DNA of 64,000 nt, from NCBI GenBank assembly GCA_964584335.1, contig CAZOZN010000002.1:8025-72024 (forward strand). Reading direction: 5' to 3'. The notes beneath the pieces were generated by a model. The model saw only the letters and a list, made by a program, of their open reading frames with translations, did no database searches and was not told the DNA's origin. This document shows, in pieces, positions 35,549 through 62,803 of the stretch. The translations under genes were made by a program, and so were the position numbers. This DNA comes from an uncultured archaeon. Its GTDB lineage: Archaea > Aenigmatarchaeota > Aenigmatarchaeia > PWEA01 > JAGHBM01. The stretch's first letter is position 1, and each line of letters opens with the position of its first letter.

Positions 35549-35647
35549 GCCCCGGTAGTGTAGCGGTCTAGCATACGGCCCTGTCGGGACCCTCAGTAAA
35601 GTTGCGGTAAGGCTGTGACCCGGGTTCGAATCCCGGCTGGGGCGCCA
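35549..35647 (+). tRNA. Class-I tRNA (99 nt) with a ~23-nt intron in the anticodon loop; best model is tRNA-Asp(GTC).
   Basis: Acceptor GCCCCGG/CTGGGGC (one G-U), G, CCA; D-arm GTGT-AGCGGTCTAGC-ATAC; candidate anticodon stem CGGCC, loop CTGTCG|intron 35587-35609|A, GGCTG; variable TGAC; T-arm CCGGG-TTCGAAT-CCCGG. Confidence 0.5.
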
Positions 35648-35653
35648 AAGATT

Positions 35654-35742
35654 GGGCCTATAGCTCAGCCTGGTAGAGCACCGGCCTTTTAACATTAGAG
35701 GAAAGCCGGGTGTCGAGGGTTCGAATCCCTCTGGGCCCGCCA
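35654..35742 (+). tRNA. tRNA-Lys(TTT) with a 12-nt intron at 37/38.
   Basis: Acceptor GGGCCTA/TGGGCCC, G, CCA; D-arm GCTC-AGCCTGGTA-GAGC; anticodon stem CCGGC, loop CTTTTA|ACATTAGAGGAA|A, GCCGG; variable GTGTC; T-arm GAGGG-TTCGAAT-CCCTC. Confidence 0.65.
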
Positions 35743-47688: not shown

Positions 47689-48837
47689 ATGAAATCAAGT
47701 ATGATACTTTGCAGGTTTGGAGAGAGTGTGCTTAAAGCGGATTATACAAGAAGATATTTCGAAAACAAGCTTTTATCAAACATATCAAAAGAATTTAAGA
47801 AAAAAGATATAGAGTTTTCAGTAAAAAGGGAACCGGGGAGACTTTTCATAAAGACAAAAAAAATAGATAAATCGTGCGATATACTAAAAAAGACATTCGG
47901 CATTACAAGTGTTTCTCCAGTAAAGGAAATTAAAATAAAAAGCGATATAGAGAAGATTGTAAAATACTCGGAGAAAATAGCAAGAGATTTAATCAAAAAA
48001 GACAATACTTTCGCAGTAAGGGCAAGAAGAACAGGTAATGATGCATTTACAAGCAAGATGATAGAAAGGAAGGTAGGTTCCAGGATAATAGAAAAAACTG
48101 GTGCGAAGGTGGACCTTGATAAACCGGATAAAATACTATATATTGAAGTAAGACAAAACAAAGCCTATTTTTTTACAGAAAGAATAAAATGTCCGGGAGG
48201 TCTTCCTTTAGGAACACAAGGGAATGTGGTAGTTCTTTTTTCGGGCGGAATAGACTCGGCGGTAGCTTCCTGGATGTTAATGAAAAGAGGATGTAGGATA
48301 TTCCCTCTGTATATAGACCCTTCTCCTTATGTAGAAGGCAAAAAAAGTTTAATCAGAGCAGAAAAGGTCTTGGAAGATTTAAAAAAGTGGTCTGTTGGTC
48401 AAAATATTGAACTGAAAAAAGTAAAAACTGGTAAAATAATGGATTGTTTTACAGAAAAATGCAAGCTTAATCTTACATGCTTGTTATGTAAGAGACTTAT
48501 GTACAGAATAGCTGAAATTTTTTGCAAAAAGAAAAAAGCGAAAGCAATAGTGACTGGAGAAAACTTGGGACAGGTTGCATCTCAAACACTTGACAACATA
48601 AACGTTTTAAATCAGGCCGTTTCACTCCCTATTCTAAGACCACTTATAGGTATGGACAAAACAGAAATAATAAAAATTGCAAGAAATATAGGAACATACG
48701 ACTCATCTACAATAAAAACTTCCGGTTGTTCTGCAGTTCCAGAATCTCCGAGAACAAAAGGCAGGATAGAAGAAGTTTTAAAAGAAGAAGAAAAAATAGA
48801 CATTAAAAAAAAGATGGAAGAATTATTAAAAATGTAA
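47689..48837 (+). CDS. thiI: tRNA 4-thiouridine synthase / sulfurtransferase ThiI (THUMP plus PP-loop).
   Basis: PP-loop VVVLFSGGIDSAVASWMLMKRGCRIFPLYID; N-terminal ferredoxin-like/THUMP region. Confidence 0.8.
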   Translation: MKSSMILCRFGESVLKADYTRRYFENKLLSNISKEFKKKDIEFSVKREPGRLFIKTKKIDKSCDILKKTFGITSVSPVKEIKIKSDIEKIVKYSEKIARDLIKKDNTFAVRARRTGNDAFTSKMIERKVGSRIIEKTGAKVDLDKPDKILYIEVRQNKAYFFTERIKCPGGLPLGTQGNVVVLFSGGIDSAVASWMLMKRGCRIFPLYIDPSPYVEGKKSLIRAEKVLEDLKKWSVGQNIELKKVKTGKIMDCFTEKCKLNLTCLLCKRLMYRIAEIFCKKKKAKAIVTGENLGQVASQTLDNINVLNQAVSLPILRPLIGMDKTEIIKIARNIGTYDSSTIKTSGCSAVPESPRTKGRIEEVLKEEEKIDIKKKMEELLKM

Positions 48838-48869
48838 ACTTTTTAATATAACAAAAAACAATCTAACAT

Positions 48870-49268
48870 GTGTGTGTTATGGGTGTTAAAATACCTAATT
48901 CTGAACTAGTAAAAAGAATTATCTTTTATTCAATGAAAAAAAGGGGTGTAATACATTCACAAGATGAATTATCAGAGATTGTGAAGAGAGAACTAAAAAA
49001 AATAAACAAAAAATTTACAATAACCCCGCACAGGGTAAGAAAAATTGCACTTCAGATAGAAAATATGGAAATAAAGGTTAAAACAAAAAAAAGCAAGAAA
49101 AGCAAACCAAAAAAATGTCCTGTTTGTGAAAACAAGTTAAAGCCAATATATGCAAAAAATCTTCTCAACAAAAGAATAACTGTTGGTTTTAGGTGTAAAG
49201 TTTGTGGTTATCACGCCGACGAAAAATTTTTTGCGCCAATGAAGTATGAATTCAAGTTAATCAATTAA
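48870..49268 (+). CDS. Hypothetical protein with C-terminal zinc ribbon (CPVC...CKVCG).
   Basis: 132 aa; K-rich linker then C-x2-C-x~30-C-x2-C. Confidence 0.35.
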   Translation: MCVMGVKIPNSELVKRIIFYSMKKRGVIHSQDELSEIVKRELKKINKKFTITPHRVRKIALQIENMEIKVKTKKSKKSKPKKCPVCENKLKPIYAKNLLNKRITVGFRCKVCGYHADEKFFAPMKYEFKLIN

Positions 49269-50169
49269 TAGTATTCAATAATTCGCAAGCCTTACACACA
49301 GAACGAGAAGTTGGTTCACCGCACTTTGAGCAATACCTTATCTCTGAAGAATTCTTAAAATTTTTCTCTATCGGAGGTATTATCTTGTCCATATGCCTGA
49401 TTATATTATGTTTTGTACCGGGGTATTTTTCTTCAATTTCATTTAAAAATTTTTTTACGTCAAATCTGACGCTTTCTTTAGAATTCGGGCAGTGTGAATG
49501 GTAAAATTCTATACCATTAAGATAGCAATAAAGAGCGCTTTCTTTTTCCGGTATCTCCCTAAGAGGCTTTATCCTAGTAACAAAACCTTTCTTCTTGGTG
49601 GGCGGTTTTGGTCCAAGCCTTATAAGCCTGCCTACATCACCCTTTAGATTGTTTATTAAAAAACTTTGTATCTCGTCGTCTAAGTTATGCCCTGTTGCTA
49701 GTTTTGTAGCACCCATTTCTCTTGCTTTCTTGTTTATTATAAACCTTCTTAAAACTCCGCAGTATGTGCAGGCACGGGCATCTATTTTAACAATATCATC
49801 CATATTCTTTCCAAATTCTTCCCTGAAAGAACATACAGTCAATTCAACACCTATCATATTTGATAATTTTTTTAGAGATTTTATGCTTATATCCCTATAA
49901 CCCTTTATACCCTCGTCAATTGTAATTGCATTTACCTTTATGTCAGGCCTTTTTCCGAAGATTTTTTTAATTAAATAAAGAGTAAGAGATGAATCCTTAC
50001 CTCCAGAAACGGCAACAAAAATATTATCATTCTTTACTATAAGATTATTTTTTCTTATGGTCGCCTTTACTTTTGATTCAAGCTGTTTTGAAAAATGACT
50101 TTTACACCAAGCCCTGCCCTCGTACTTTCTATAAATTACTGCATCATTTCCACAGGAATAACACCTCAT
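49261..50169 (-). CDS. PP-loop ATPase of the TtuA/NcsA (Ncs6/Ctu1-like) tRNA 2-thiolation family.
   Basis: N-terminal CxxC Zn finger (CYSCGNDA...WCKSH), PP-loop VAVSGGKDSS, central CTYCG, C-terminal CSKCG...CKAC; ~300 aa. Confidence 0.8.
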   Translation of the reverse strand: MRCYSCGNDAVIYRKYEGRAWCKSHFSKQLESKVKATIRKNNLIVKNDNIFVAVSGGKDSSLTLYLIKKIFGKRPDIKVNAITIDEGIKGYRDISIKSLKKLSNMIGVELTVCSFREEFGKNMDDIVKIDARACTYCGVLRRFIINKKAREMGATKLATGHNLDDEIQSFLINNLKGDVGRLIRLGPKPPTKKKGFVTRIKPLREIPEKESALYCYLNGIEFYHSHCPNSKESVRFDVKKFLNEIEEKYPGTKHNIIRHMDKIIPPIEKNFKNSSEIRYCSKCGEPTSRSVCKACELLNTIN

Positions 50170-50771
50170 CTTTCACCATCCCATTCTGCAAAGAACTCTT
50201 CCAAAAAATCTCTCATGTACTTGTCTCTTTCCTCTGCCATTCTAATTGCAGTATTAGTATTCAGACTGTCTTTTATTTTTAGAAGTTTTTCATAGAAATG
50301 ATTTATAGCAGTATCACTTTCTCCGGTATAAACATCAGATATCTCCTTGCCTGGTATATGAACAGGCCTGTTCTTACAGCCAGTGTAAACCATGGTCCTG
50401 ACTATCCCCATAGCACCAAGAACGTCAAGTCTGTCGGCATCCTGAAGTATTTTTGCTTCCAAAGTGTCTACTTTCTTTCCCTTGCTAAATCTATGATTTT
50501 TTATACAGTAAACAACTTTTTCCCTCTTTTCATAATCAGAAAGTAGTTTTTCTGCTATCCTAGAGCTGACTATTTCATGATTCTTTCTATCCTCGTATAT
50601 TCCAACATCATGTAAAAGCGCGGCAAGCTTGAGAACTTCCATATCTGCACCTTCCTTCTCGCCTATCTTAACACAAAGATTGTAAACTCTTTGTACATGG
50701 TCCCATCCATGTGCAATATCATTTTTATCCATATATTTCTTGGCAATTTTGCTTATCTCTTTTAAATCCAT
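50166..50771 (-). CDS. HD-domain metal-dependent phosphohydrolase (ORF-track GTG start at 50780; ATG 50771 equally possible).
   Basis: H..HV (HGWDHVQRV), LLHDVG (HD motif), ...DADRLDVLG (distal D). Confidence 0.7.
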   Translation of the reverse strand: MDLKEISKIAKKYMDKNDIAHGWDHVQRVYNLCVKIGEKEGADMEVLKLAALLHDVGIYEDRKNHEIVSSRIAEKLLSDYEKREKVVYCIKNHRFSKGKKVDTLEAKILQDADRLDVLGAMGIVRTMVYTGCKNRPVHIPGKEISDVYTGESDTAINHFYEKLLKIKDSLNTNTAIRMAEERDKYMRDFLEEFFAEWDGER

Positions 50772-50772
50772 T

Positions 50773-50970
50773 CTAACCACGCGAAATTATTTCTATTACC
50801 TCAATATCATCTTTATCTCTTAATTTTTCTTCAACGGGAACAAACAATCCGTTTCTTTTTACTAAAACAGATTCTGTTATTATTCCCATCTCTTTAAGAA
50901 GTTCTTCTATAGTATCTTTCTCAGTCTTAAATTTTTTGGTTTTGTTTTTAATTTTAACTTTAATAATCAT
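50773..50970 (-). CDS. ThiS/MoaD-like beta-grasp small protein (sulfur-carrier-like) ending in -SRG rather than -GG.
   Basis: 65 aa; ...VLVKRNGLFVPVEEKLRDKDDIEVIEIISRG* follows the ThiS/MoaD pattern (vNG..vp...L.dGDeIeii..vsGG) except for the terminal dipeptide. Confidence 0.5.
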   Translation of the reverse strand: MIIKVKIKNKTKKFKTEKDTIEELLKEMGIITESVLVKRNGLFVPVEEKLRDKDDIEVIEIISRG

Positions 50971-51029: not shown

Positions 51030-51190
51030 GCTGAGGTGGGAGAGCGGTTTAATCCGGTTGGCTCGAGACCAACTGCATCTTTGATGCACGCAGGTTCAAA
51101 ACAGACCCTTTAGAAAAGTGTCTGTACTTCCAAAAATGTTTGGAAATCTACGATTTCCCAATTGGAACGAGAATCCTGCCCTCAGCGCCA
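51030..51190 (+). tRNA. tRNA-Ser(CGA) with a ~73-nt intron in the T-loop (about 59/60).
   Basis: Acceptor GCTGAGG/CCTCAGC, discriminator G, CCA; class-II D-arm GGA-GAGCGGTTTAA-TCC; anticodon stem GTTGG, loop CTCGAGA, CCAAC; variable hairpin TGCATC-TTTG-ATGCA; T-stem GCAGG; T-loop TTCAAA(A) interrupted by 51102-51174 before CCTGC. Confidence 0.7.
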
Positions 51191-51204: not shown

Positions 51205-51636
51205 ATGAGAAAAACTCCAAAAGTCACAGTAGACATAATTTTAGAGAAGGAAGACAAGATAATACTAGTAAAAAGAGGTATAGAGCCTTGGAAAGGTAAG
51301 CTTGCCTTGCCGGGTGGTCATGTAGAATACGAAGAAAACGTTGAAAATGCAGCAATAAGAGAAACAAAAGAAGAAACAAACCTTAATGTAGAAGTTAAAG
51401 ACATACTTGGAGTATACTCAGAATCAAAGAGGGACCCAAGATACCATGCAATATCAACAGTATTCATAGGTAAAATTATCAATGGTAATTTAGAAGCAGG
51501 TTCTGATGCGAATGATGCAAATTTTTACAATATAAAAAAAATTAAAAAAGAAGATATGTCATTTGACCATTGGAAAATAATAAAAGACTATTTAAAATGG
51601 AAAGAAAATAAAGGCACATATTGGTCTTCGAAATAA
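51205..51636 (+). CDS. NUDIX hydrolase. Start taken at ATG 51205; the ORF-track start 51118 lies inside the tRNA.
   Basis: NUDIX box GGHVEYEENVENAAIRETKEETNL (G-x5-E-x7-REUxEExGU). Confidence 0.75.
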   Translation: MRKTPKVTVDIILEKEDKIILVKRGIEPWKGKLALPGGHVEYEENVENAAIRETKEETNLNVEVKDILGVYSESKRDPRYHAISTVFIGKIINGNLEAGSDANDANFYNIKKIKKEDMSFDHWKIIKDYLKWKENKGTYWSSK

Positions 51637-53892: not shown

Positions 53893-54840
53893 TTAAGGTG
53901 ATTCTGCTCCTTCTACTGTTACTGTTGTGTGTACGTCTTCAAAGTATCCGTATCTTAACGTAACTGTTACTGGTATGTCTGTCCTTGTGCTGAAATCTTT
54001 AGGATCTAAGTCACAACTGTACGTGAAAGATTGTCCTCTTCTAAGTGTCTGGTCTGTTGGAGTATCGTATGCATCACAATCTGAACCTGAAGCACCGTCA
54101 ACTCCATCCGCATTTATTTCCAATTCAATTATATCCATTTCATCAGATGTTATGTCCAAAGTGCTCATATCATGGTCAGGGTCTATCAGACTTCCTCTCT
54201 CAAGCAAATCAACTGTTATCCTAAAATCTATTGTATCGTCTGCTGGATCGTCCACTACTACTGGTGTTCTTGCAACAATTTCAACAGCAAGAGGACCTTT
54301 TGTTACTTCTGTAGTTACTGGTGGTAAATTTAGCATGTTTCTTTCTCTTAGTCTCTTGTATTCTTCCTTTGTCAAAACTGGTATGGTTGCAGATGCAATC
54401 GTTTCATAATTATACATTAATCTTGCTCTGGGGGTGTACTTGAATACAACTCCCTCTGGTATTCCCGTTGGAGTCTGTAATTCCCATTCAACATCAGCTA
54501 TCTCTCCTGGAATGTCTGCAAGTGTATCAGGCTGTTCAAGCTCTGCTGCAACTTCCTGTGAAAAGTCAGTTGTTCCTGGGTCCCATACGTCCTCATCTAT
54601 ATCATATAAATGAGCCCATACGTCTTCTGCCATAGAACCTCCGACATTTTCGACTTCCATATACAATTCAACATCTTCATTTTCAGATTCATAGTCAGGG
54701 AAGTCAGAGCTGAACTCGTGTATTACAACTCCACCAGCGGTGCTTGTTATTTGTTCATTTCCCATTATTCCTTCTAATCCTACACATCCGCTGGAAAATA
54801 AAACGGTTGCAACCAAGACCAATATTAAAGCTTTTTTCAT
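53893..54840 (-). CDS. Secreted lipobox-bearing protein (signal peptide ...LFSSGC), CARDB-like; paralogue of 54855-55739 and 56567-57547.
   Basis: MKKALILVLVATVLFSSGC; VELYMEVENVGGSMAED beta-sandwich-like; shared EEYKRLRER motif with paralogues. Confidence 0.5.
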   Translation of the reverse strand: MKKALILVLVATVLFSSGCVGLEGIMGNEQITSTAGGVVIHEFSSDFPDYESENEDVELYMEVENVGGSMAEDVWAHLYDIDEDVWDPGTTDFSQEVAAELEQPDTLADIPGEIADVEWELQTPTGIPEGVVFKYTPRARLMYNYETIASATIPVLTKEEYKRLRERNMLNLPPVTTEVTKGPLAVEIVARTPVVVDDPADDTIDFRITVDLLERGSLIDPDHDMSTLDITSDEMDIIELEINADGVDGASGSDCDAYDTPTDQTLRRGQSFTYSCDLDPKDFSTRTDIPVTVTLRYGYFEDVHTTVTVEGAESP

Positions 54841-54854
54841 TATATTATTCCTCC

Positions 54855-55739
54855 TTAATTTGGTTTTACTTCGATATTAATAGTTTTGTAGTAGTTATAT
54901 ATATAATTTGCCTCGGCCTTAAATTGTCCTTTTTCCCTTACATCGACCGAGCCAACCGTAAATTTGCATGTGGCCTTCTTTGTCCTGCCGTTCTTAAACT
55001 TGAGTGGCGTGTTTAAAATCATCTGCCCTCCCCCAGCAGTAAAATCGTTGCACTGAGGGTTTATCAAGAAATCAGGGTATTCGATAACTAAATCAGTTCC
55101 TGAAATCTCTTCTTCCGGCATACCGCTTCCCCTGTTTATTAACTGTACGTAAAAATATAATTCCAAACCCTCGTACAGCGGCTGGGGTTTTGATATAGAC
55201 AAATCTATTTCAACTGGTGTCTTGGTCTTATAATAGTAAAGATTTATCTCTCCTGTTCTTCCCTGTCTTTCAAGTCTGCCGTATTCTTCTTCTGTCATTG
55301 CTATGACATCGTACATAGAAGAAGCCTTGGATTTGTAATTAACCCTGTACCTTAAAGTTTCCCTTTGACTTGAATGTATTTCATCAGAAAGGTCTAGCTT
55401 CCACTCCCAATTTTCCATATCGCCCTCTTCCATCTCGATTATATATTCGCTGGTAGCACCTAAAGAAGTAAAATCAACCAAATCTGTCATCTCGACATTT
55501 ATATCCTCTAGAGTCGTGTTTCCAGAGTTATACAAGTCAAAATACAATATGGTGCTCTTACCTTCATAAACCACATTAGGTATTGCTTCAACATCTACAT
55601 CTAAATCCTCATATTGATTATATTTTGGCTCATCGGGTCCCATATCAAGTCCCAATTGAGAAAAAACATCACCGCCTGTTATACAACCAGAAGTAAGTAA
55701 TACTAAAGATAAAAACAAAATTAGAAAGTAACTCTTCAT
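54855..55739 (-). CDS. Secreted lipobox-bearing protein (signal peptide ...LLTSGC), CARDB-like; paralogue.
   Basis: MKSYFLILFLSLVLLTSGC; STILYFDLYNSGNTTLEDINVEMTD; EEEYGRLERQGR motif. Confidence 0.5.
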   Translation of the reverse strand: MKSYFLILFLSLVLLTSGCITGGDVFSQLGLDMGPDEPKYNQYEDLDVDVEAIPNVVYEGKSTILYFDLYNSGNTTLEDINVEMTDLVDFTSLGATSEYIIEMEEGDMENWEWKLDLSDEIHSSQRETLRYRVNYKSKASSMYDVIAMTEEEYGRLERQGRTGEINLYYYKTKTPVEIDLSISKPQPLYEGLELYFYVQLINRGSGMPEEEISGTDLVIEYPDFLINPQCNDFTAGGGQMILNTPLKFKNGRTKKATCKFTVGSVDVREKGQFKAEANYIYNYYKTINIEVKPN

Positions 55740-55778
55740 AACTAAATTATAGAAAGTGTTCTTTTTAAATGTTCTGCA

Positions 55779-56132
55779 TTAACCCATCCCGAAAGGTTCT
55801 ACACAGCCACAAGCTCTCGCGACTTTCCTTATGTTATCTTTATCACTACAATCAAATTTTGAAAAATCTTTTTTTTCTATTGAAGAATAAGAACAACAAA
55901 GTTCGTAAGGTATCTCGTCTCCCTTGCAATTAGTCCTTGCCCAGGAAACACATAAAGAATTAAAGTCCTGTTTTTGCCTGTATATATCCAAGCCCGGTGA
56001 AAAGGTACCCATAAAGAAAATAAAAGTCGCAGCGAGAAAAACACCACCTGATATAATTATAATTAATTTTTCCGAGGTGATTATAACTCCCTTCATGTTA
56101 ACCACTATAACAAAAGAAAAATAAAAGAACAA
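55779..56132 (-). CDS. Pilin-like small secreted protein with class-III (type IV prepilin-like) signal peptide and Cys-rich C-terminal domain. Start probably at the internal Met near 56096.
   Basis: MKG|VIITSEKLIIIISGGVFLAATFIFFMGTF then C.SWARTNC ... ARACGCVEPFG; paralogous to 56144-56512. Confidence 0.4.
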   Translation of the reverse strand: MFFYFSFVIVVNMKGVIITSEKLIIIISGGVFLAATFIFFMGTFSPGLDIYRQKQDFNSLCVSWARTNCKGDEIPYELCCSYSSIEKKDFSKFDCSDKDNIRKVARACGCVEPFGMG

Positions 56133-56143
56133 AATGGGTTATG

Positions 56144-56512
56144 CTAGTATGTAAAGTCACGACCAAATGGTTTTAGACAGTTACAGGCTTCAGCGACTAC
56201 TTCGTACCTAGTATCTATACTAGTATCTGGTACATAACCGACACCAGTCATGTTGTGGTAAGCTTTTGCTACATTATCAGGCATTCCTAGACTATCAGTA
56301 CTTTCCACACATCCAGCTGTACCTATAGTACAATTATCACAATTAGATAAGGCCCAGCTTTGGCACTTAGAGTTAAAGTTCTGCTGTAATGTCTGCTGTT
56401 GTGCTGTGGGTCCGAAAGCACCCATAAACCAAGCAACTGCTGCTAGTAACACTATTATTGCCACTGCTAACATAACCAAAGTGTTTATTGGTATTGAAAC
56501 TCCTTTTTCCAT
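56144..56512 (-). CDS. Pilin-like small secreted protein with class-III signal peptide and Cys-rich C-terminal domain.
   Basis: MEKG|VSIPINTLVMLAVAIIVLLAAVAWFMGAF (K-G then ~25 hydrophobic residues); C.SWALSNC ... AEACNCLKPFG. Confidence 0.45.
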   Translation of the reverse strand: MEKGVSIPINTLVMLAVAIIVLLAAVAWFMGAFGPTAQQQTLQQNFNSKCQSWALSNCDNCTIGTAGCVESTDSLGMPDNVAKAYHNMTGVGYVPDTSIDTRYEVVAEACNCLKPFGRDFTY

Positions 56513-56566
56513 TTTTATCTCCTTTTTATTAATTTATTTAACTTATTTAAATACTTTTTTCATTTC

Positions 56567-57547
56567 TTAATCCATAGTATATGTTGGTTTTATTGTAACC
56601 ATCCTTTCCTCATATAGAGGATAAACATAATCCTCTAATTTTGCGACAGCCTTGTATGTCTTTATATCACTAATATCAGCAGATTGTAAGTCACATCTTA
56701 TAGGAGGAGATACTCCTTTTATTAAAGGTATGGGTGCATCGTTAACTATTTCTGTGTCACTGACCACGTTTATCCAATTTACAGGATGGCATGAGTTAAC
56801 AGTAAGACCGTTATCAAATTCAACACTAAACACACCAGAAGGAACTTCTTCATACATACCACTTCCTTCATCATGAATTCTGATTATTGCTGGTATAACT
56901 AAGTTTTCATCCACTGGTTGTTGGGTTTCAAAAAGCATTTCTATTTTTAATGGTCCTCTTGACTGTGTCTGAACTGGAGTAATTGATATTTTCTCTCCAG
57001 CCCTATTTGCATTTATTAATCTATCATGGTCAATAACGGCTATATCCGAGGTCGTGTAGGAATCATATTCATATTCAACCTTAAAACGTATTGGACACTT
57101 CCCTTCCATTCTCCCCAGGTCTTCGTTAGTAGGTGCCTTGAATTGCCATTCAACAAGTTCGGCGCCTCCTCCAGGATAAATTGTAGCACCTCCTATATCA
57201 TTGCTTATATCCACTTCATCACATCTACCCCAGTCATAAACAGTTGCATATACATCTTCAGCGGCTTTTGCGCCCTCATCTGTGAGTCCTATATTGGTTA
57301 CTATAAAAGAAATCGTGAAAGTAGAATCTGTAGTTTCAGTAGATGCAGAAACGGGCGGATTAGGTATTACCTCTATATCTTCTACCACAATAACATCAGT
57401 AGGAGCTTTTACTGTTTCAGTCTCAACTATACCAAGAGATTCGAAAACAGATTGCATACCGCCTCCCTCAACACAACCTGAAACAAAAATAACAGGAGAT
57501 AAAATAAAAACAATACTCAAAACAGACAAAATTTCCTTTAAACTCAT
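56567..57547 (-). CDS. Secreted lipobox-bearing protein (signal peptide ...IFVSGC), CARDB-like; paralogue.
   Basis: LSVLSIVFILSPVIFVSGC; TFTISFIVTNIGLTDEGAKAAEDVYATVYD; DHDRLINANRAGE motif. Confidence 0.5.
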   Translation of the reverse strand: MSLKEILSVLSIVFILSPVIFVSGCVEGGGMQSVFESLGIVETETVKAPTDVIVVEDIEVIPNPPVSASTETTDSTFTISFIVTNIGLTDEGAKAAEDVYATVYDWGRCDEVDISNDIGGATIYPGGGAELVEWQFKAPTNEDLGRMEGKCPIRFKVEYEYDSYTTSDIAVIDHDRLINANRAGEKISITPVQTQSRGPLKIEMLFETQQPVDENLVIPAIIRIHDEGSGMYEEVPSGVFSVEFDNGLTVNSCHPVNWINVVSDTEIVNDAPIPLIKGVSPPIRCDLQSADISDIKTYKAVAKLEDYVYPLYEERMVTIKPTYTMD

Positions 57548-57593
57548 TTCACCACCTTTAATTTTTAATTTTTTGAATATAAAAGTTTCTTAT

Positions 57594-60191
57594 TTATTTT
57601 ACACATTTTCCGTTGCTACATCCATTTGGACAATTATGTAAGTTTCTTGTTGCACTGCCACCTTCACAAACAGCTTCAGCAAGATTAGTTGCAGAATCCA
57701 AACAATCTCCACCAGAACTTTCCATACAACAATCATTATAAGTCGTATCTCCCTCAGTAGCTCTGGATTTTCTATAATAGTTATAACCACCATCATAATC
57801 CGTACAGTTAACGTCAACATAATTATTACTGTTACACTTTCCATTACTGCAACCATTCATACAATTGTAATTATGACTTGATACAGAATCTCCATCACAA
57901 TCCCACTCGGTCAACTGATCACCACTACATGAATCAGTATGTCCTATACCATCGGTTCCTGTTGCAGTTCCTTTGTTAAAGTGGTCTGGGCCGTTATCGC
58001 TATCCGTGCAAGATGATCCCCCGTCTCCACTATCTCCATCATCACCTTCAGAGGGTTCCCTACAATCTACCATATTCCAAGAACCACATAAACTTGAACA
58101 AGCACTGTTTCCACTACCGCACTCATAAATTCTAAGAGTTTTCATCTGCCCACTAGTTGGATCTTGACATATACATTCCATATAAGACCCAAAACTAACT
58201 TTCATTTTATTTTCAATTTTATCAACATAAGTATAATTAACCAAACCAGTCAATGCAAAAGTTTTCTGCTCTACGTCTATATTAGGTATCCTTGATATAC
58301 ATATAGCCTTTACAGGTTTTCCTATTGTTTCGTTTCCGTCCATGTACTCAGCCAAGCCTCTTAACTTCAAATCATTATCATCTCCAAGACTTGGTTCACA
58401 ATAAGTATCTTCTGTTCCCTCTATATCGCTAACATCAACTCTTGCATATTTTATATTATCAACATAACCATTAGCTACATTTTCCAAATAAAGCATAACC
58501 GGAACTTCCTCCAAATCATCTCTTACCGGCATGTTGTTTCTCATTAAAGCAATACCAAGTCTTACAGGACCACCAGTATCTTCTGTAACTTGTTCCTTTA
58601 CATCCAATTTGCCGTTTCTATCAAGCCTATAATAATAAGATTTATTCATTATCATTACATCTACAAGACCTTCAACACTCAAGTCATAACTTATATTTAC
58701 ACCGTAAGAAACATAATTACCACTAACAAGATTATCAATATTATATCTAAGAACTATTTCACGCATCTCTCCTGGTATTAATTTAGGTAAAGGACAACTT
58801 GGATTTGCTGTATTTCCATCTTCACATGTCATACTAACCGTACCAGCAAGAATCCTTTCCTCTTCCAAAGTACCCTGTGTATAGTATGGTTCTATTGGCG
58901 TTATACTTATATCATAAGCACTCCTGTCACCTTTATTTTCTATCCTACCAATAATCAAAACCTCGCCGGGTTTTTCTATATTTTCGTTACCGAAAATTTG
59001 TAAATCGGTTACCTCAACTGCTTTTATACTTCTCTTGGTATAAGTTTTTGGTTTATAATCCTGATAACATGCTATAGGATTAGCAAGACAAGAATAACCA
59101 TATCCTAATGTTCCCAAAGGAGACCCTAGATTTTCCATTATAGGTCCCGCTATCTGGTCTATGTTATAATCAATTGTAGGCCACCAGTCACCAAAAACAG
59201 CTTCTCCCATTATATCAGGGTAAGCTATTGCTGTGCTTGCAAGAGCAACAACAAGTATTGGTACGCCTATGAAAGTTTTTGCCTTGTCCACGGGGACGGA
59301 AGCGAGTATTCCCAAACCAACAACTGATGAGAATATTACAAAACCAACAAGACTGCTAGTGCCTGACTGTCCTAAGAACGAAACTGAACTAAGTGCAAGA
59401 CCGCCTCCACCAAGAGCGCCCAGTATTATACCATTTACGTTTCTACCCAACAAAAAACCAATACCCACCGAAACCGCAGCCATGACAATCCCGATTCCAA
59501 TAGTGAAAAACTTAGTTAAATCAACAGATATGTCAGGAGCTGTAATAGAAAGTAAAAAAACTACCAAAGTAACAAAAACAAGGATAATAACAAGATACAT
59601 AAAAAATTTTCCAATCTGACCAGCGTCTTTCTCCCCGGCAGATCTTCTAACACCTTCACTTAATCTTTCCCCAACTTCGTAAAATTTTTGAAGCATTTTT
59701 GCTGAGACATCATTTCTACCCTGAACATCAACGGATGGTATAGTTATGAAAAATCCTGAAGCAATTAAAATAAGAGACCAAAACAAAGTCGGATTGCTTG
59801 AGCTAATATCTGAAAATATGTATCCGAATGTGATTACCATTAAAATTCCTAAAATCATTTTCAAAACAGAAAGACCGACTTCCTCGTCTGAAGAAACGCT
59901 ATCAGAAGGCGAGCTCATTATTCCAACAGAAAGAACAAATAATGGTATAAACTTCAAAAACGGGAGAGGACCAAACATCAATAATGTCCCCAAGCTCAAA
60001 AAGATGAAACCACAAGACCTGAAAAAAGCCCTTACATAACCTATATACTCAAATGAATCAATGTTAAAAACAGAAGTGGGTTTTTCAGGATGATAACCTC
60101 CCTGATCTAACAAACCCGGTTTTTCAGCATGACAAATAGGACAAGGATAGCTACTTATTTCCTCTCCGCAGTTGAAACATCTCTTTGTCAT
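57594..60191 (-). CDS. Large polytopic membrane protein: N-terminal cytoplasmic Zn ribbon, ~8 TM helices, large extracytoplasmic CARDB-like domain, Cys-rich C-terminus with duplicated C(x)NGCSNGKC motif.
   Basis: 865 aa; CFNCGEEISSYPCPIC; multiple long hydrophobic segments (residues ~60-330); C-terminal YNCMNGCSNGKC and HNCPNGCSNGKC; 36 Cys in the last ~230 aa. Confidence 0.55.
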   Translation of the reverse strand: MTKRCFNCGEEISSYPCPICHAEKPGLLDQGGYHPEKPTSVFNIDSFEYIGYVRAFFRSCGFIFLSLGTLLMFGPLPFLKFIPLFVLSVGIMSSPSDSVSSDEEVGLSVLKMILGILMVITFGYIFSDISSSNPTLFWSLILIASGFFITIPSVDVQGRNDVSAKMLQKFYEVGERLSEGVRRSAGEKDAGQIGKFFMYLVIILVFVTLVVFLLSITAPDISVDLTKFFTIGIGIVMAAVSVGIGFLLGRNVNGIILGALGGGGLALSSVSFLGQSGTSSLVGFVIFSSVVGLGILASVPVDKAKTFIGVPILVVALASTAIAYPDIMGEAVFGDWWPTIDYNIDQIAGPIMENLGSPLGTLGYGYSCLANPIACYQDYKPKTYTKRSIKAVEVTDLQIFGNENIEKPGEVLIIGRIENKGDRSAYDISITPIEPYYTQGTLEEERILAGTVSMTCEDGNTANPSCPLPKLIPGEMREIVLRYNIDNLVSGNYVSYGVNISYDLSVEGLVDVMIMNKSYYYRLDRNGKLDVKEQVTEDTGGPVRLGIALMRNNMPVRDDLEEVPVMLYLENVANGYVDNIKYARVDVSDIEGTEDTYCEPSLGDDNDLKLRGLAEYMDGNETIGKPVKAICISRIPNIDVEQKTFALTGLVNYTYVDKIENKMKVSFGSYMECICQDPTSGQMKTLRIYECGSGNSACSSLCGSWNMVDCREPSEGDDGDSGDGGSSCTDSDNGPDHFNKGTATGTDGIGHTDSCSGDQLTEWDCDGDSVSSHNYNCMNGCSNGKCNSNNYVDVNCTDYDGGYNYYRKSRATEGDTTYNDCCMESSGGDCLDSATNLAEAVCEGGSATRNLHNCPNGCSNGKCVK

Positions 60192-60198
60192 ATTATCA

Positions 60199-61575
60199 CT
60201 AAATTTTACTCAAGCCGAAAAATATTATTCCCACTCCTATTAGTGTTGCCCCCAGCTGGTTTGTGTATGGGCCCAAGACCAAAGATACCAAAAGACCTAA
60301 AACCAAAGATGTTACAATAGGAGTTATAGATGAATGCAAAATGCCCACACTAGTACCTTCCAAGCCTTTCTTATCTGGATAAAAATCATACCCAGATCCT
60401 ATAAAACCGCACGAATTGCATGCAATTTTACCATCGGCGTCATATCTTAAATTATGGGAACCGCATTTGGGGCATTTTCCTCCACTTGGTTTTTCTCGAT
60501 TTGTTGTCTTTTTATCTTTTTCCTCATCTTTTTTCCTTTGAGACTCTATTTTTTTCTCCGTCATATCGAAAAACTTACCTGATTGTTCCAAAGCTTTTTC
60601 TTTCTCTAACTTTTTCTCAGTTTGTTCAAAAAACTTTCCGGTATCTTTCAGAGCTTGATCATACTCATTTCTCTGTAAATCAAGCAATTTTTTTCTTGCT
60701 CTTTCATTTTCTTTTTCAGTCCTTTCAAACCAATCACCGGCCTCTTTGTAAGCAGCCGGTATTTTTTTCTTTTCTCTTCGTGTAGAAACTCCACTATCCT
60801 TTCTCCTAATTAATTTACCAATACTAGGTTTTTCATATTTTTTTGAACTATATTTTTTCAATAGATCTTTGGATACATTAGGAGGTTTATTCATATCCCC
60901 GACAGACTTAGATTCAACTCTTTTTCTGTGTCTTTCCTTTTCAGCCTCTCTTTCCAACAAAAATTTATTCAATATCTCGTACTGTTCCTCGGTTATCTTG
61001 CCTTCGTCAGCAAAAACTCTTATAAGCAGCCTTAAACTACTAAAATCTTCAAGTTGTGAATTAGAAATAATATTTTTTAATTTTACAACGGCTTTTGAAC
61101 CCAAGACTTTTTTCTTTCTAAGTGCTTCTTCTTTTTTATTCAAAAATTCAAACAAATAATTTATATCATTATTACTAAGACCGGGTGATTTGGATATTAT
61201 ATCATTTAACAACTGGTCTCTGTCTACGTTTCCTTTGTTGATTTTTTTAACATGTTTCTTAACAAAATTCCCGGGTCTTGTATCCTGATATGCTTCGGCT
61301 TCATAAGCTACCCATCTCATAGCCTTGTTTAATTCACTTCTCAGCTTTTCAAGCTCATAATCACTAAATTTATCAATATTATTTGTTATTTTCTCTCTGC
61401 AATATTTCAATTTGTTCATGTCTTTATTAGAAACGGCACTCTTTATCTGCTTTGATATGTGTTTATATTCGCTTCCCATTCCTTCACCTGAGGGTGCTCT
61501 TTTTATATTTAAGTTATTGGATTTCCTATTTTTAAGCTTTTTTTCTTTTATAACAATTCCTTTGTTTTTAATCAA
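60199..61575 (-). CDS. Tail-anchored membrane protein: long K/E-rich coiled-coil cytoplasmic region with three G(K/D)(F/W)FE.TEK repeats, a Zn ribbon (CPKCG...CNSCG), and two C-terminal TM helices.
   Basis: 458 aa; repeats GDWFERTEKENERARKK / GKFFEQTEKKLEKEKA / GKFFDMTEKKIESQRKK; C-terminal ITPIVTSLVLGLLVSLVLG and LIGVGIIFFGL. Confidence 0.5.
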   Translation of the reverse strand: MIKNKGIVIKEKKLKNRKSNNLNIKRAPSGEGMGSEYKHISKQIKSAVSNKDMNKLKYCREKITNNIDKFSDYELEKLRSELNKAMRWVAYEAEAYQDTRPGNFVKKHVKKINKGNVDRDQLLNDIISKSPGLSNNDINYLFEFLNKKEEALRKKKVLGSKAVVKLKNIISNSQLEDFSSLRLLIRVFADEGKITEEQYEILNKFLLEREAEKERHRKRVESKSVGDMNKPPNVSKDLLKKYSSKKYEKPSIGKLIRRKDSGVSTRREKKKIPAAYKEAGDWFERTEKENERARKKLLDLQRNEYDQALKDTGKFFEQTEKKLEKEKALEQSGKFFDMTEKKIESQRKKDEEKDKKTTNREKPSGGKCPKCGSHNLRYDADGKIACNSCGFIGSGYDFYPDKKGLEGTSVGILHSSITPIVTSLVLGLLVSLVLGPYTNQLGATLIGVGIIFFGLSKI

Positions 61576-61615
61576 AGATAATCTTAATCACAGATATTGC
61601 TCCAATTTTTATATT

Positions 61616-62803
61616 TCATAAATCAACATGGAAATCTGATATAGTGTAGCCACCGCTTCCTGTTACCGAGAATATTACCTTGTTTTCACCAACCCCTGCA
61701 TAGTTCTTAGGAAGCCTCAAGCTTATGGTATTTCCCTCGTCAAGAACACCCTGCACAACAAGAGAATGTTTGTCTCCGTCAGGATTTTCTACAGTAGCTA
61801 CAAGAGAAGTTGGTGTTTCAAATATTTTCTCTATCTTGAATTTTATTTCTCCCGGTAATCTTCTATGTTGAGAACCGGTCAAGTAGAAATTCATTTCAAG
61901 TTCTTCCGAAGCCTCTCTATCCCAGAATATAATTATTTCCGCATCTCTTGCTGTAAATTCGGTTCCCCTTTCAGAAGACATTTCAATCAAGTTATCTCCT
62001 TCTCTTATTATGTCTTCAAAATCAATCCACTGTATAAACCTGGGTGTATCGCTGAAAACATTTACCCCATTAACATTAACAAAAAGTTTTCCGTCACCTT
62101 CTATTTCGTCAAAATTAATTATAATTCTTCCCAGATTTACCGGTGTTTCTTTTTCGCCTACATAAAAATTGAAACTTTGTGATACTGTTCCAACAAAGTC
62201 ACTCTTCAGCTCAAGGTTCCTTAACTTATATACAGTGGGAGCCCACATTCTCCAGCCGCTGGACTCCGAAGTAACCAAAAATTCATTATCTTCTGAGAAA
62301 AAACTAATATCAATAGGTATTTCAAAACTTTCTCCGGTTTTAAGTGGCTCTGAGAAAATCTCTTTACCGTTTAAACCAAAAATCAATCTTCCGTAAAGAT
62401 TTGTATCGTATACTTCTCCCAAAAGAGAAACAGATTTCATCTTGTTCAAATCATCCTCGGTGAGAGAAAATATTTTATTATATTCTTTCGATTCGAGTAT
62501 GCCGTTTTTAACTGTCAACTCATCCTCTTGTATAAAAGATTTCTTCTCTGTTACATAACTTATTTTGAAGGGTTTTCTCATAAGATATATGTGCCTCAAA
62601 TCTTCAACTTCTCTGGTACCCACAAAATCATCTTCCGGTAGATTTATTTCGGGCTCGCTGACAGAACGATTGCTTCTCTCCGGAGGCACAAACCTGTAAC
62701 TTGGACCAACAAGAAAATTACCACCATCCATCATCATGTAAAAACTAAAAAAAAGCAAGATACCTACTATAAAAACCTTTGTAAAATACGGGATTTTTCC
62801 CAT
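61616..62803 (-). CDS. N-terminally anchored (signal-anchor TM) extracytoplasmic protein, unknown function.
   Basis: 395 aa; TM VFIVGILLFFSFYMM then an acidic beta-rich domain. Confidence 0.5.
   Translation of the reverse strand: MGKIPYFTKVFIVGILLFFSFYMMMDGGNFLVGPSYRFVPPERSNRSVSEPEINLPEDDFVGTREVEDLRHIYLMRKPFKISYVTEKKSFIQEDELTVKNGILESKEYNKIFSLTEDDLNKMKSVSLLGEVYDTNLYGRLIFGLNGKEIFSEPLKTGESFEIPIDISFFSEDNEFLVTSESSGWRMWAPTVYKLRNLELKSDFVGTVSQSFNFYVGEKETPVNLGRIIINFDEIEGDGKLFVNVNGVNVFSDTPRFIQWIDFEDIIREGDNLIEMSSERGTEFTARDAEIIIFWDREASEELEMNFYLTGSQHRRLPGEIKFKIEKIFETPTSLVATVENPDGDKHSLVVQGVLDEGNTISLRLPKNYAGVGENKVIFSVTGSGGYTISDFHVDL

Follow-up and report, generated by a model that had tools for sequence, protein, structure and literature searches.

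A Ser-x-Gly tail in place of Gly-Gly in TtuB/SAMP2-like proteins encoded beside an NcsA/TtuA-family thiolase in Aenigmarchaeota

The window analysed here is a 64,000-nucleotide stretch of contig CAZOZN010000002.1 (assembly GCA_964584335.1) from an uncultured archaeon of the Aenigmatarchaeota, and the gene under study encodes a small ubiquitin-like protein (Ubl) of the ThiS/TtuB/SAMP2 type that ends in Ile-Ser-Arg-Gly, followed by a TAG stop codon. This gene (50773-50970, minus strand, 65 residues) is followed head to tail by a gene encoding an HD phosphohydrolase of the YpgQ/YedJ family (minus strand, 201 residues, 50166-50771 from an ATG start or 50166-50780 from a GTG start) and by a gene encoding a PP-loop enzyme of the NcsA/TtuA family, the [4Fe-4S]-type tRNA 2-thiouridine synthetases (49261-50169, minus strand, 302 residues). 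The plus-strand genes of ThiI and of a zinc-ribbon open reading frame (ORF) converge on these three genes, as an earlier interpretation made from the DNA letters alone (called here the sequence-only reading) had described; its gene identifications agreed with the Pfam, NCBIfam and Protein Data Bank (PDB) matches. The overlapping stops and starts that it reported within the minus-strand operon hold for the HD and NcsA genes, which share 4 nt (ATGA), but the Ubl and HD genes overlap only if the HD protein starts at the GTG at 50780. In the gene call made on identical DNA from an independent assembly (locus L009), the HD gene starts at the ATG at 50771, one base past the Ubl stop codon, giving 201 residues; in one relative, L012, the called start of the HD protein (203 residues) also lies directly after the Ubl stop codon. 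The NcsA gene and the zinc-ribbon ORF are convergent with an overlap of 8 nt.

The 65-residue protein matched the Pfam ThiS family (PF02597) with 29.3 bits (cut-off 22.5, E=1.3e-6) and came near the threshold of Pfam SAMP2 (24.5 bits, cut-off 27). Its scores were below the NCBIfam equivalog cut-offs, with 29.5 bits against 80 for TIGR01683 and 26.4 against 37.45 for PRK08364 (both ThiS) and 20.6 against 70 for NF041919 (SAMP2). A profile of its relatives that end in glycine preceded by a residue other than glycine (xG) matched Pyrococcus furiosus SAMP2 (5LDA_B) and PF1061 at E=3e-14 and TtuB (5ZTB) at 6e-10. The AlphaFold2 model of the protein, with a predicted local distance difference test score (pLDDT) of 89, adopts the beta-grasp fold, and its top Foldseek neighbours are MTH1743 (1RYJ) and TtuB (5GHA and 5ZTB, TtuB bound to TtuA), with template modelling scores of 0.7-0.84. 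Non-carrier beta-grasp families (TGS, RnfH, ubiquitin proper) gave far worse matches than SAMP2/TtuB. The better fit to such a family that the sequence-only reading had considered was not found, the best sequence and structure matches being P. furiosus SAMP2/PF1061, MTH1743 and TtuB. The protein possesses the fold and the PF02597 match of the ThiS/MoaD/TtuB/SAMP2 carriers and, with TAG directly after Gly65, the free C-terminal glycine of this family, but lacks its C-terminal Gly-Gly (GG).

The 3' end of the gene reads ATT TCG CGT GGT TAG (Ile-Ser-Arg-Gly-stop), confirming the Arg-Gly terminus of the sequence-only reading; CGT and GGT differ here at position 50781 of the plus strand, and not at 50780 as had been given. 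A single base change at 50781 would restore GGT, as expected if the terminus arose from a sequencing or assembly error or if the gene were a decaying pseudogene of a GG carrier. However, the Logan assembly of run SRR15425353 contains 301 bp identical to the window, including the CGT codon, and the four closest homologs (55-63% identity) end in SRG or SSG. Moreover, a non-Gly penultimate residue was found throughout 13 related loci whose DNA was compared, all of them encoding Ser/Thr-x-Gly with the stop codon immediately after. Seven penultimate codons are used in these loci, four of them for Arg (CGT, CGG, AGA, AGG) and the others for Ser (AGT), Asn (AAT) and Lys (AAA). The proportions of nonsynonymous differences (pN, 0.17-0.41) are below those of synonymous differences (pS, 0.51-0.97), with dN/dS of about 0.15-0.4, and the terminal glycine is the sole invariant column among 27 xG sequences. 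Because an independent assembly is identical and non-Gly penultimate residues are kept across the clade, the Arg-Gly terminus is not an error, and the substitution pattern indicates a gene under purifying selection and not a dead one. With the confident fold added to the identical assembly, the seven codons and the purifying selection, the probability of an error or a pseudogene is practically negligible. Of the three options that the sequence-only reading had offered for this tail, an error is refuted and an inactive gene is unlikely, given the purifying selection, the confident beta-grasp model, the invariant terminal glycine and the kept operon linkage; a different mode of activation is conceivable.

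To place this tail among its relatives, 1.84 billion cluster representatives were scanned with HMMER, yielding 249 relatives, and the C-termini of the best 150 were read. GG was found in 113 of these 150 and xG in 30, a fraction that is not an unbiased frequency since the seed profile slightly favours xG tails. The xG types were RG and SG (11 each), KG (4), CG (2), QG (1) and VG (1), nearly all within a ...V/I-S-x-G context. In a second survey, based on an NcsA alignment and on one genome per GTDB species, at least 80 loci with 35-47% identity were obtained; those listed belong to methanogens, Thermoplasmata, Bathyarchaeia, Woese-, Nano- and Micrarchaeota and others, and none to the lineage of the window. 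A ThiS-like gene is adjacent to NcsA in 21 of the 80 loci listed, and all 21 products end in GG. Together with the 113 GG termini among the 154 relatives retrieved, these agree with the statement of the sequence-only reading that GG is the norm among sulfur carriers. The best explanation of the xG termini appears to be that the usual ...S-G-G tail became ...S-x-G, where x is Arg, Ser, Asn or Lys and more rarely Cys, Gln or Val, and that in this clade only the terminal glycine of the tail remains under constraint. Since the whole clade keeps S-x-G, the second-to-last glycine seems to be dispensable there.

A taxon name is attached to three of the xG proteins (HDI02701.1, RLI96481.1 and OYT34994.1), and in each case it is Candidatus Aenigmarchaeota. 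In a neighbour-joining tree of 146 short carriers, the xG types are scattered among the GG types, with a resolution too low to count origins. A search of metagenomes with a narrow Ubl alignment gave no match. Locus L091, one of the 80 NcsA loci listed, is labelled Dialister hominis, a bacterium, yet its NcsA is of archaeal type and 42% identical to the query; this genome bin is probably contaminated.

The PP-loop enzyme scored below the NCBIfam cut-offs both for NcsA (253 bits, cut-off 500) and for TtuA of the Pyrococcus type (200 bits, cut-off 450), and its best PDB matches were PhTtuA (5MKO, 9e-54), MmNcsA (6SCY, 7e-53) and TtTtuA (5GHA, 4e-45). The S55-GGKDS PP-loop, the cluster cysteines C134-x-x-C137 and C227, and both zinc fingers (C3/C6/C22/H25 at the N-terminus, C280/C283/C292/C295 at the C-terminus) are invariant in the alignment. 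A carrier-type gene followed by an NcsA/TtuA gene, either adjacent or one gene apart, was found in the window and in L001-L006, L011, L012, L015, L096, L100, L101 and L112. In L007-L010, L013 and L108 the contig ends sooner, and nothing there contradicts the pairing, which in the sequences compared is the constant of the gene context. The wider arrangement (NUDIX, tRNA-Ser, divergent carrier-HD-NcsA, and converging zinc-ribbon ORF and ThiI) is kept at NcsA identities of 61-71%. In archaea, ThiS-family genes are widely associated with those of arCOG00042 PP-loop ATPases, as was described in 2010 (PMC2948915). The partner of the L011 carrier is closer to TtuA, with 329 versus 136 bits, and this pairing of an xG carrier with a clearly TtuA-like enzyme indicates that the xG trait is not tied to uridine 34 (U34) or to U54 of tRNA. 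At L011 (1964-4076), the gene of the RNA 3'-phosphate cyclase RtcA overlaps the start of the gene for the SRG-ending carrier, which in turn overlaps that of the clearly TtuA-type thiolase. This contig has 46% G+C (GC) and carries CheR, PilZ and UbiD/UbiE genes, and the xG carriers may for this reason extend beyond the AT-rich Aenigmarchaeota.

We lean, with modest confidence, towards the 65-residue protein being a functional sulfur carrier of the TtuB/SAMP2 type, dedicated to the co-transcribed NcsA/TtuA thiolase, for which the terminal glycine would be sufficient. This proposal starts from the fold and family, the xG terminus, the purifying selection, the operon linkage and the PP-loop and cluster ligands of the thiolase, and it extends to a thiocarboxylation, an activator and a target nucleotide that would be as follows. 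An unlinked ATP-dependent activator, in the simplest case an E1-like protein (ThiF/MoeB/UbaA) encoded outside the window, would adenylate Gly65, and persulfide or sulfide sulfur would convert the adenylated glycine to a thiocarboxylate (Gly65-COSH). The tail would then enter NcsA, bind the unique Fe and give its sulfur to the ATP-activated U34 (or U54) of the tRNA, the penultimate residue taking no part in the chemistry. Activation without a penultimate glycine has parallels among the eukaryotic ubiquitin-fold proteins Atg8, Atg12 (Phe-Gly) and Ufm1 (Val-Gly), which are adenylated by E1-like enzymes at a terminal glycine that follows another residue. These proteins have dedicated E1s (Atg7, Uba5) and are not sulfur carriers, and a specific sequence relationship between them and the protein studied here was not found. 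As to the delivery step, TtuB coordinates the unique Fe in the cluster of TtuA through its C-terminal carboxylate or thiocarboxylate (PMC7138817).

Several points weigh against this proposal. No E1-like (ThiF/MoeB) gene was detected in the 64-kb window by tblastn with E. coli MoeB, by phmmer with a Nanoarchaeota E1 or by Pfam scans, which together took in about 45 ORFs of the window, apart from the ribosomal-protein block at 18-24 kb. No E1 was found in about 100 kb of flanks around the other xG loci (at most 10 kb each). By contrast, an E1 gene lies in the cluster with GG carriers in L093 (Nanoarchaeota, Ubl-NcsA-E1), in L069 and L045 (Woesearchaeota) and in L087 (Bathyarchaeia). A passage of PMC4326299 summarising Schmitz 2007 states that Gly80 and Gly81 of E. 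coli MoaD are both essential for molybdopterin synthase activity; a residue as bulky as Arg should then fit poorly into a classical MoeB-type pocket. Furthermore, sulfide can serve Fe-S thiolases of the NcsA/TtuA family as a direct sulfur source in vitro (PMC10067955, PMC7138817), so that a carrier is not strictly required. Finally, the case for the xG members is drawn from sequences and models.

The Pfam scans of the window ORFs also gave no JAMM protease, rhodanese or cysteine desulfurase. When the Nanoarchaeota E1 was used as a query for an E1 of Aenigmarchaeota, the matches listed came from Nano- and Woesearchaeota only, an uninformative result. A candidate cysteine desulfurase beside the xG carrier of L096 was rejected; this class-V aminotransferase is pyridoxamine-pyruvate transaminase-like (253 bits, versus about 30 bits for IscS/NifS).

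The absence of an E1 from the window and from every xG locus, set against its presence within the GG-type clusters of DPANN archaea, would also be compatible with a Ubl that carries no sulfur and with a thiolase that takes sulfide directly. The Ubl would then be a non-covalent accessory subunit that gates the active site or uses its terminal carboxylate to cap and stabilise the oxygen-labile [4Fe-4S] cluster; the loss of the E1 would have relaxed the penultimate glycine, the terminal glycine and the S-x-G geometry being kept for docking. The variability of the penultimate residue (Arg, Ser, Asn, Lys, Cys, Gln, Val) fits relaxed and not redirected selection, and the neighbouring ThiI likewise belongs to a sulfide-competent Fe-S class. 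In the same direction, the tail and the TtuA cluster are both more stable once TtuB-COOH is bound, and sulfide is a usable sulfur source for TtuA and NcsA (PMC7138817, PMC10067955). However, the E1 search covered the window and flanks of at most 10 kb, and not whole genomes. In addition, most of the replacing residues are polar or basic, and the tail is never shortened or extended, so some constraint on it must remain. We know of no precedent for a ThiS-family member whose role beside TtuA/NcsA is purely structural. We regard an accessory subunit as the main rival explanation, though rather an unlikely one.

It should be noted that the best sequence match, P. furiosus SAMP2, comes from a complex with a JAMM protease (5LDA_B) and that Pfam SAMP2 is matched near its threshold. 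Archaeal ThiS-type Ubls often have dual functions (PMC2948915, PMC11323500). The protein could accordingly be imagined as mainly a SAMP-like modifier, conjugated to lysines through its terminal glycine, whose altered tail would tune its recognition by a conjugating or deconjugating enzyme. Such conjugation would also need an E1, which was not seen, no JAMM protein occurs among the window ORFs scanned, and it is the thiolase with which the gene is tightly and recurrently linked in operons; this explanation seems quite improbable to us.

The gene between Ubl and thiolase bears on the question of activation. Its HD product (Pfam HD, E=7e-17) matched 3DJB at E=2e-42, YpgQ (5DQV) at 6e-25 and YedJ (3GW7) at 5e-17 in the PDB and reached 90 bits for NCBIfam PRK10119 (cut-off 286), and the expected ligands are present (H25, H54-D55 and the QDADRLD motif). 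YpgQ, the sole characterised member of the YpgQ-type HD proteins, is a Mn-dependent (deoxy)nucleoside triphosphate ((d)NTP) pyrophosphohydrolase (PMC8177086). An HD gene occupies the same slot in seven loci (the window, L012, L100, L101, L102, L107 and L108) and is found next to NcsA in none of the 80 listed loci of other archaea, which suggests that it is clade-specific. The sequence-only reading had placed the HD gene where an E1-like or JAMM component is usually found, which holds only loosely, as in the Nanoarchaeota, Woesearchaeota and Bathyarchaeia loci the E1 gene lies after NcsA or upstream of the Ubl gene and not between them.

The idea that the middle gene always encodes an HD protein proved wrong. 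In sister lineages (L001-L007), its slot is filled by an unrelated 189-residue protein of the CYTH/triphosphate tunnel metalloenzyme (TTM) type, identified by its NCBI name, by weak Pfam and NCBIfam matches and by an ExExR motif; on one of the named xG contigs, the name of this protein also reads Candidatus Aenigmarchaeota. A profile of the CYTH protein gave no match among PDB sequences, and the fold search alone gave matches: at E of about 1e-4, Foldseek with a model of pLDDT 70 returned 2FJT, 3BHD and 7NSF (class IV adenylyl cyclase, thiamine triphosphatase and SaTTM). The CYTH genes encode 189-193 residues and lie at 10200-10769 in L001, 4614-5183 in L005 and 231-812 in L112, where the gene order is changed and the CYTH gene stands upstream of the carrier gene. 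From these sequences, the middle position looks like an in-place exchange of two phosphohydrolase families beside the xG carrier. The carrier-HD pair also recurs without the thiolase, since at 10001-11157 of L114 (GCA_964407715.1) about 300 bp separate the gene of a distant xG carrier ending in IASRG from an HD gene whose product is 43% identical to that of the window, and NcsA is absent within 10 kb of this carrier. These data hint at a functional connection of xG carriers with nucleotide or polyphosphate hydrolases; they would also fit synteny inherited within compact genomes.

Such a link could mean that activation is independent of an E1, the HD or CYTH enzyme acting on the alpha-beta bond of ATP and activating or processing the xG carrier, for example by forming or proofreading an acyl-adenylate, in place of the E1 of other DPANN clusters. 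The presence of two unrelated nucleotide/polyphosphate hydrolases beside xG carriers (HD in seven loci, CYTH in L001-L007 and L112), the recurrence at L114, the absence of the HD gene from the 80 listed NcsA loci of other archaea, in which every adjacent carrier ends in GG, and the (d)NTP pyrophosphohydrolase activity of YpgQ all favour this idea. However, L011, L015 and L096 have xG carriers with neither neighbour, the CYTH gene is also found unlinked (L113), and inherited synteny could account for the linkage, since the genomes are related and compact with mixed operons and the NUDIX and tRNA genes are equally conserved. HD and CYTH enzymes are hydrolases or cyclases, and we know of no member of either group that adenylates a protein carboxylate. 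Activation by the middle gene product thus appears very improbable. A broader formulation, in which the carrier has escaped the E1 paradigm, either through a non-E1 activation with HD and CYTH as candidates, both families having members that act on nucleoside triphosphates, or through a thiocarboxylate-free capping of the cluster of a sulfide-using thiolase, seems to us unlikely. If it held, the loss of the penultimate glycine would be the visible scar of a lost constraint by the E1 pocket.

Compared with known systems, the pair of a beta-grasp protein of about 65 residues and a PP-loop [4Fe-4S] thiolase resembles TtuB-TtuA of Thermus thermophilus, SAMP2-NcsA of Haloferax volcanii and P. furiosus SAMP2/PF1061, and the thiolase shares its cluster ligands, PP-loop and zinc fingers with TtuA/NcsA. 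The characterised TtuB/SAMP2 members end in Gly-Gly, whereas the clade described here ends in S-x-G. Unlike in the TtuB-TtuA system, no TtuC/UbaA-type E1 and no TtuD-type rhodanese lie near, and an HD or CYTH gene is inserted in the operon. The protein shares the family PF02597 with ThiS and MoaD of E. coli and Bacillus, the terminal glycine being the presumed site of chemistry, but the pathway is different, as no thiamin or molybdenum cofactor genes lie near the carrier gene of the window. In Nanoarchaeota and Woesearchaeota, the Ubl(GG)-NcsA-E1 clusters (L093, L069, L045) also combine a DPANN Ubl with NcsA, often together with ThiI; they have a GG terminus and an in-cluster E1, whereas the cluster described here has an xG terminus, contains HD or CYTH and NUDIX genes and lacks an E1. 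The archaeal Ubl-NcsA/TtuA tRNA thiolation module is thus already known. What appears to be new, from the loci compared, is the clade-wide conserved S-x-G tail, the recurrent HD/CYTH neighbours and the lack of an in-cluster E1.

The C-terminal di-glycine has served as a search criterion for prokaryotic Ubl sulfur carriers (PMC2948915) and is treated as their defining and functionally essential mark. No description of natural xG sulfur carriers was found in the literature searched, which is not proof that none exists. An S-x-G clade under purifying selection suggests that, in the TtuB/SAMP2-NcsA branch, the terminal glycine alone is indispensable, and screens based on GG would miss real carriers. 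The clade offers a natural experiment on the role of the penultimate glycine, which may lie in fitting the E1 pocket or in docking onto the thiolase, and its HD/CYTH neighbours together with the lack of an in-cluster E1 make the activation step testable with few recombinant proteins. If an ordinary E1 activates these proteins, the outcome would be a modest broadening of the motif definition.

The convergent ThiI/TtuI, the tRNA U8 4-sulfurtransferase (47689-48837, plus strand), matched TIGR00342 with 348 bits (cut-off 264.5) and contains the Pfam domains ThiI_fer, THUMP and ThiI without a rhodanese domain. Its C264-x-x-C267 and C347 are the equivalents of C265/C268/C348 of Methanococcus maripaludis TtuI, with which the Fe-S CxxC+C class of ThiI/TtuI was defined (PMC9825150), and by this motif the protein would belong to the rhodanese-less Fe-S (CxxC+C) class. 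The zinc-ribbon ORF (48870-49268, plus strand, 132 residues) carries a C-terminal CxxC...CxxC zinc ribbon with sub-threshold Pfam zinc-ribbon matches only. It was found at the same position in L001-L006, L099-L102 and L112 (E from 1e-55 to 1e-74) and is always wedged between NcsA and ThiI in the clade; it may be an accessory factor of tRNA modification or a regulator.

On the other side of the operon, just upstream of the Ubl gene, lie two genes that the sequence-only reading had not named. A divergent NUDIX hydrolase (51205-51636, plus strand; Pfam NUDIX, E=6e-20) is encoded from the first ATG after a tRNA gene and occupies the same divergent position in L001, L005-L009, L013, L099 and L100. 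The tRNA is a tRNA-Ser(CGA) (51030-51190, plus strand) with an encoded CCA, whose T-loop, a non-canonical position, is interrupted by an intron of about 72 nt. As it stands the gene gave no ARAGORN or Rfam call, and after removal of about 51101-51172 ARAGORN called tRNA-Ser(cga). L009 and L100 have retained both exons in this position, separated there by about 103 nt. The ATG at 51205 is more likely to be the NUDIX start than the GTG at 51118, because the ORF from this GTG overlaps the tRNA-Ser gene.

Elsewhere in the window (35549-35742, plus strand), ARAGORN called a tRNA-Asp of 99 nt and a tRNA-Arg of 89 nt that are 7 nt apart; these unusual lengths suggest introns or mis-called boundaries, as in the tRNA-Ser. 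Six consecutive large ORFs of 294-865 residues, which had no Pfam match at E<=1e-5, lie at 53893-62803 on the minus strand. The first of them has an N-terminal signal or lipobox-like sequence, and for this reason the six may encode surface or secreted proteins of a DPANN cell.

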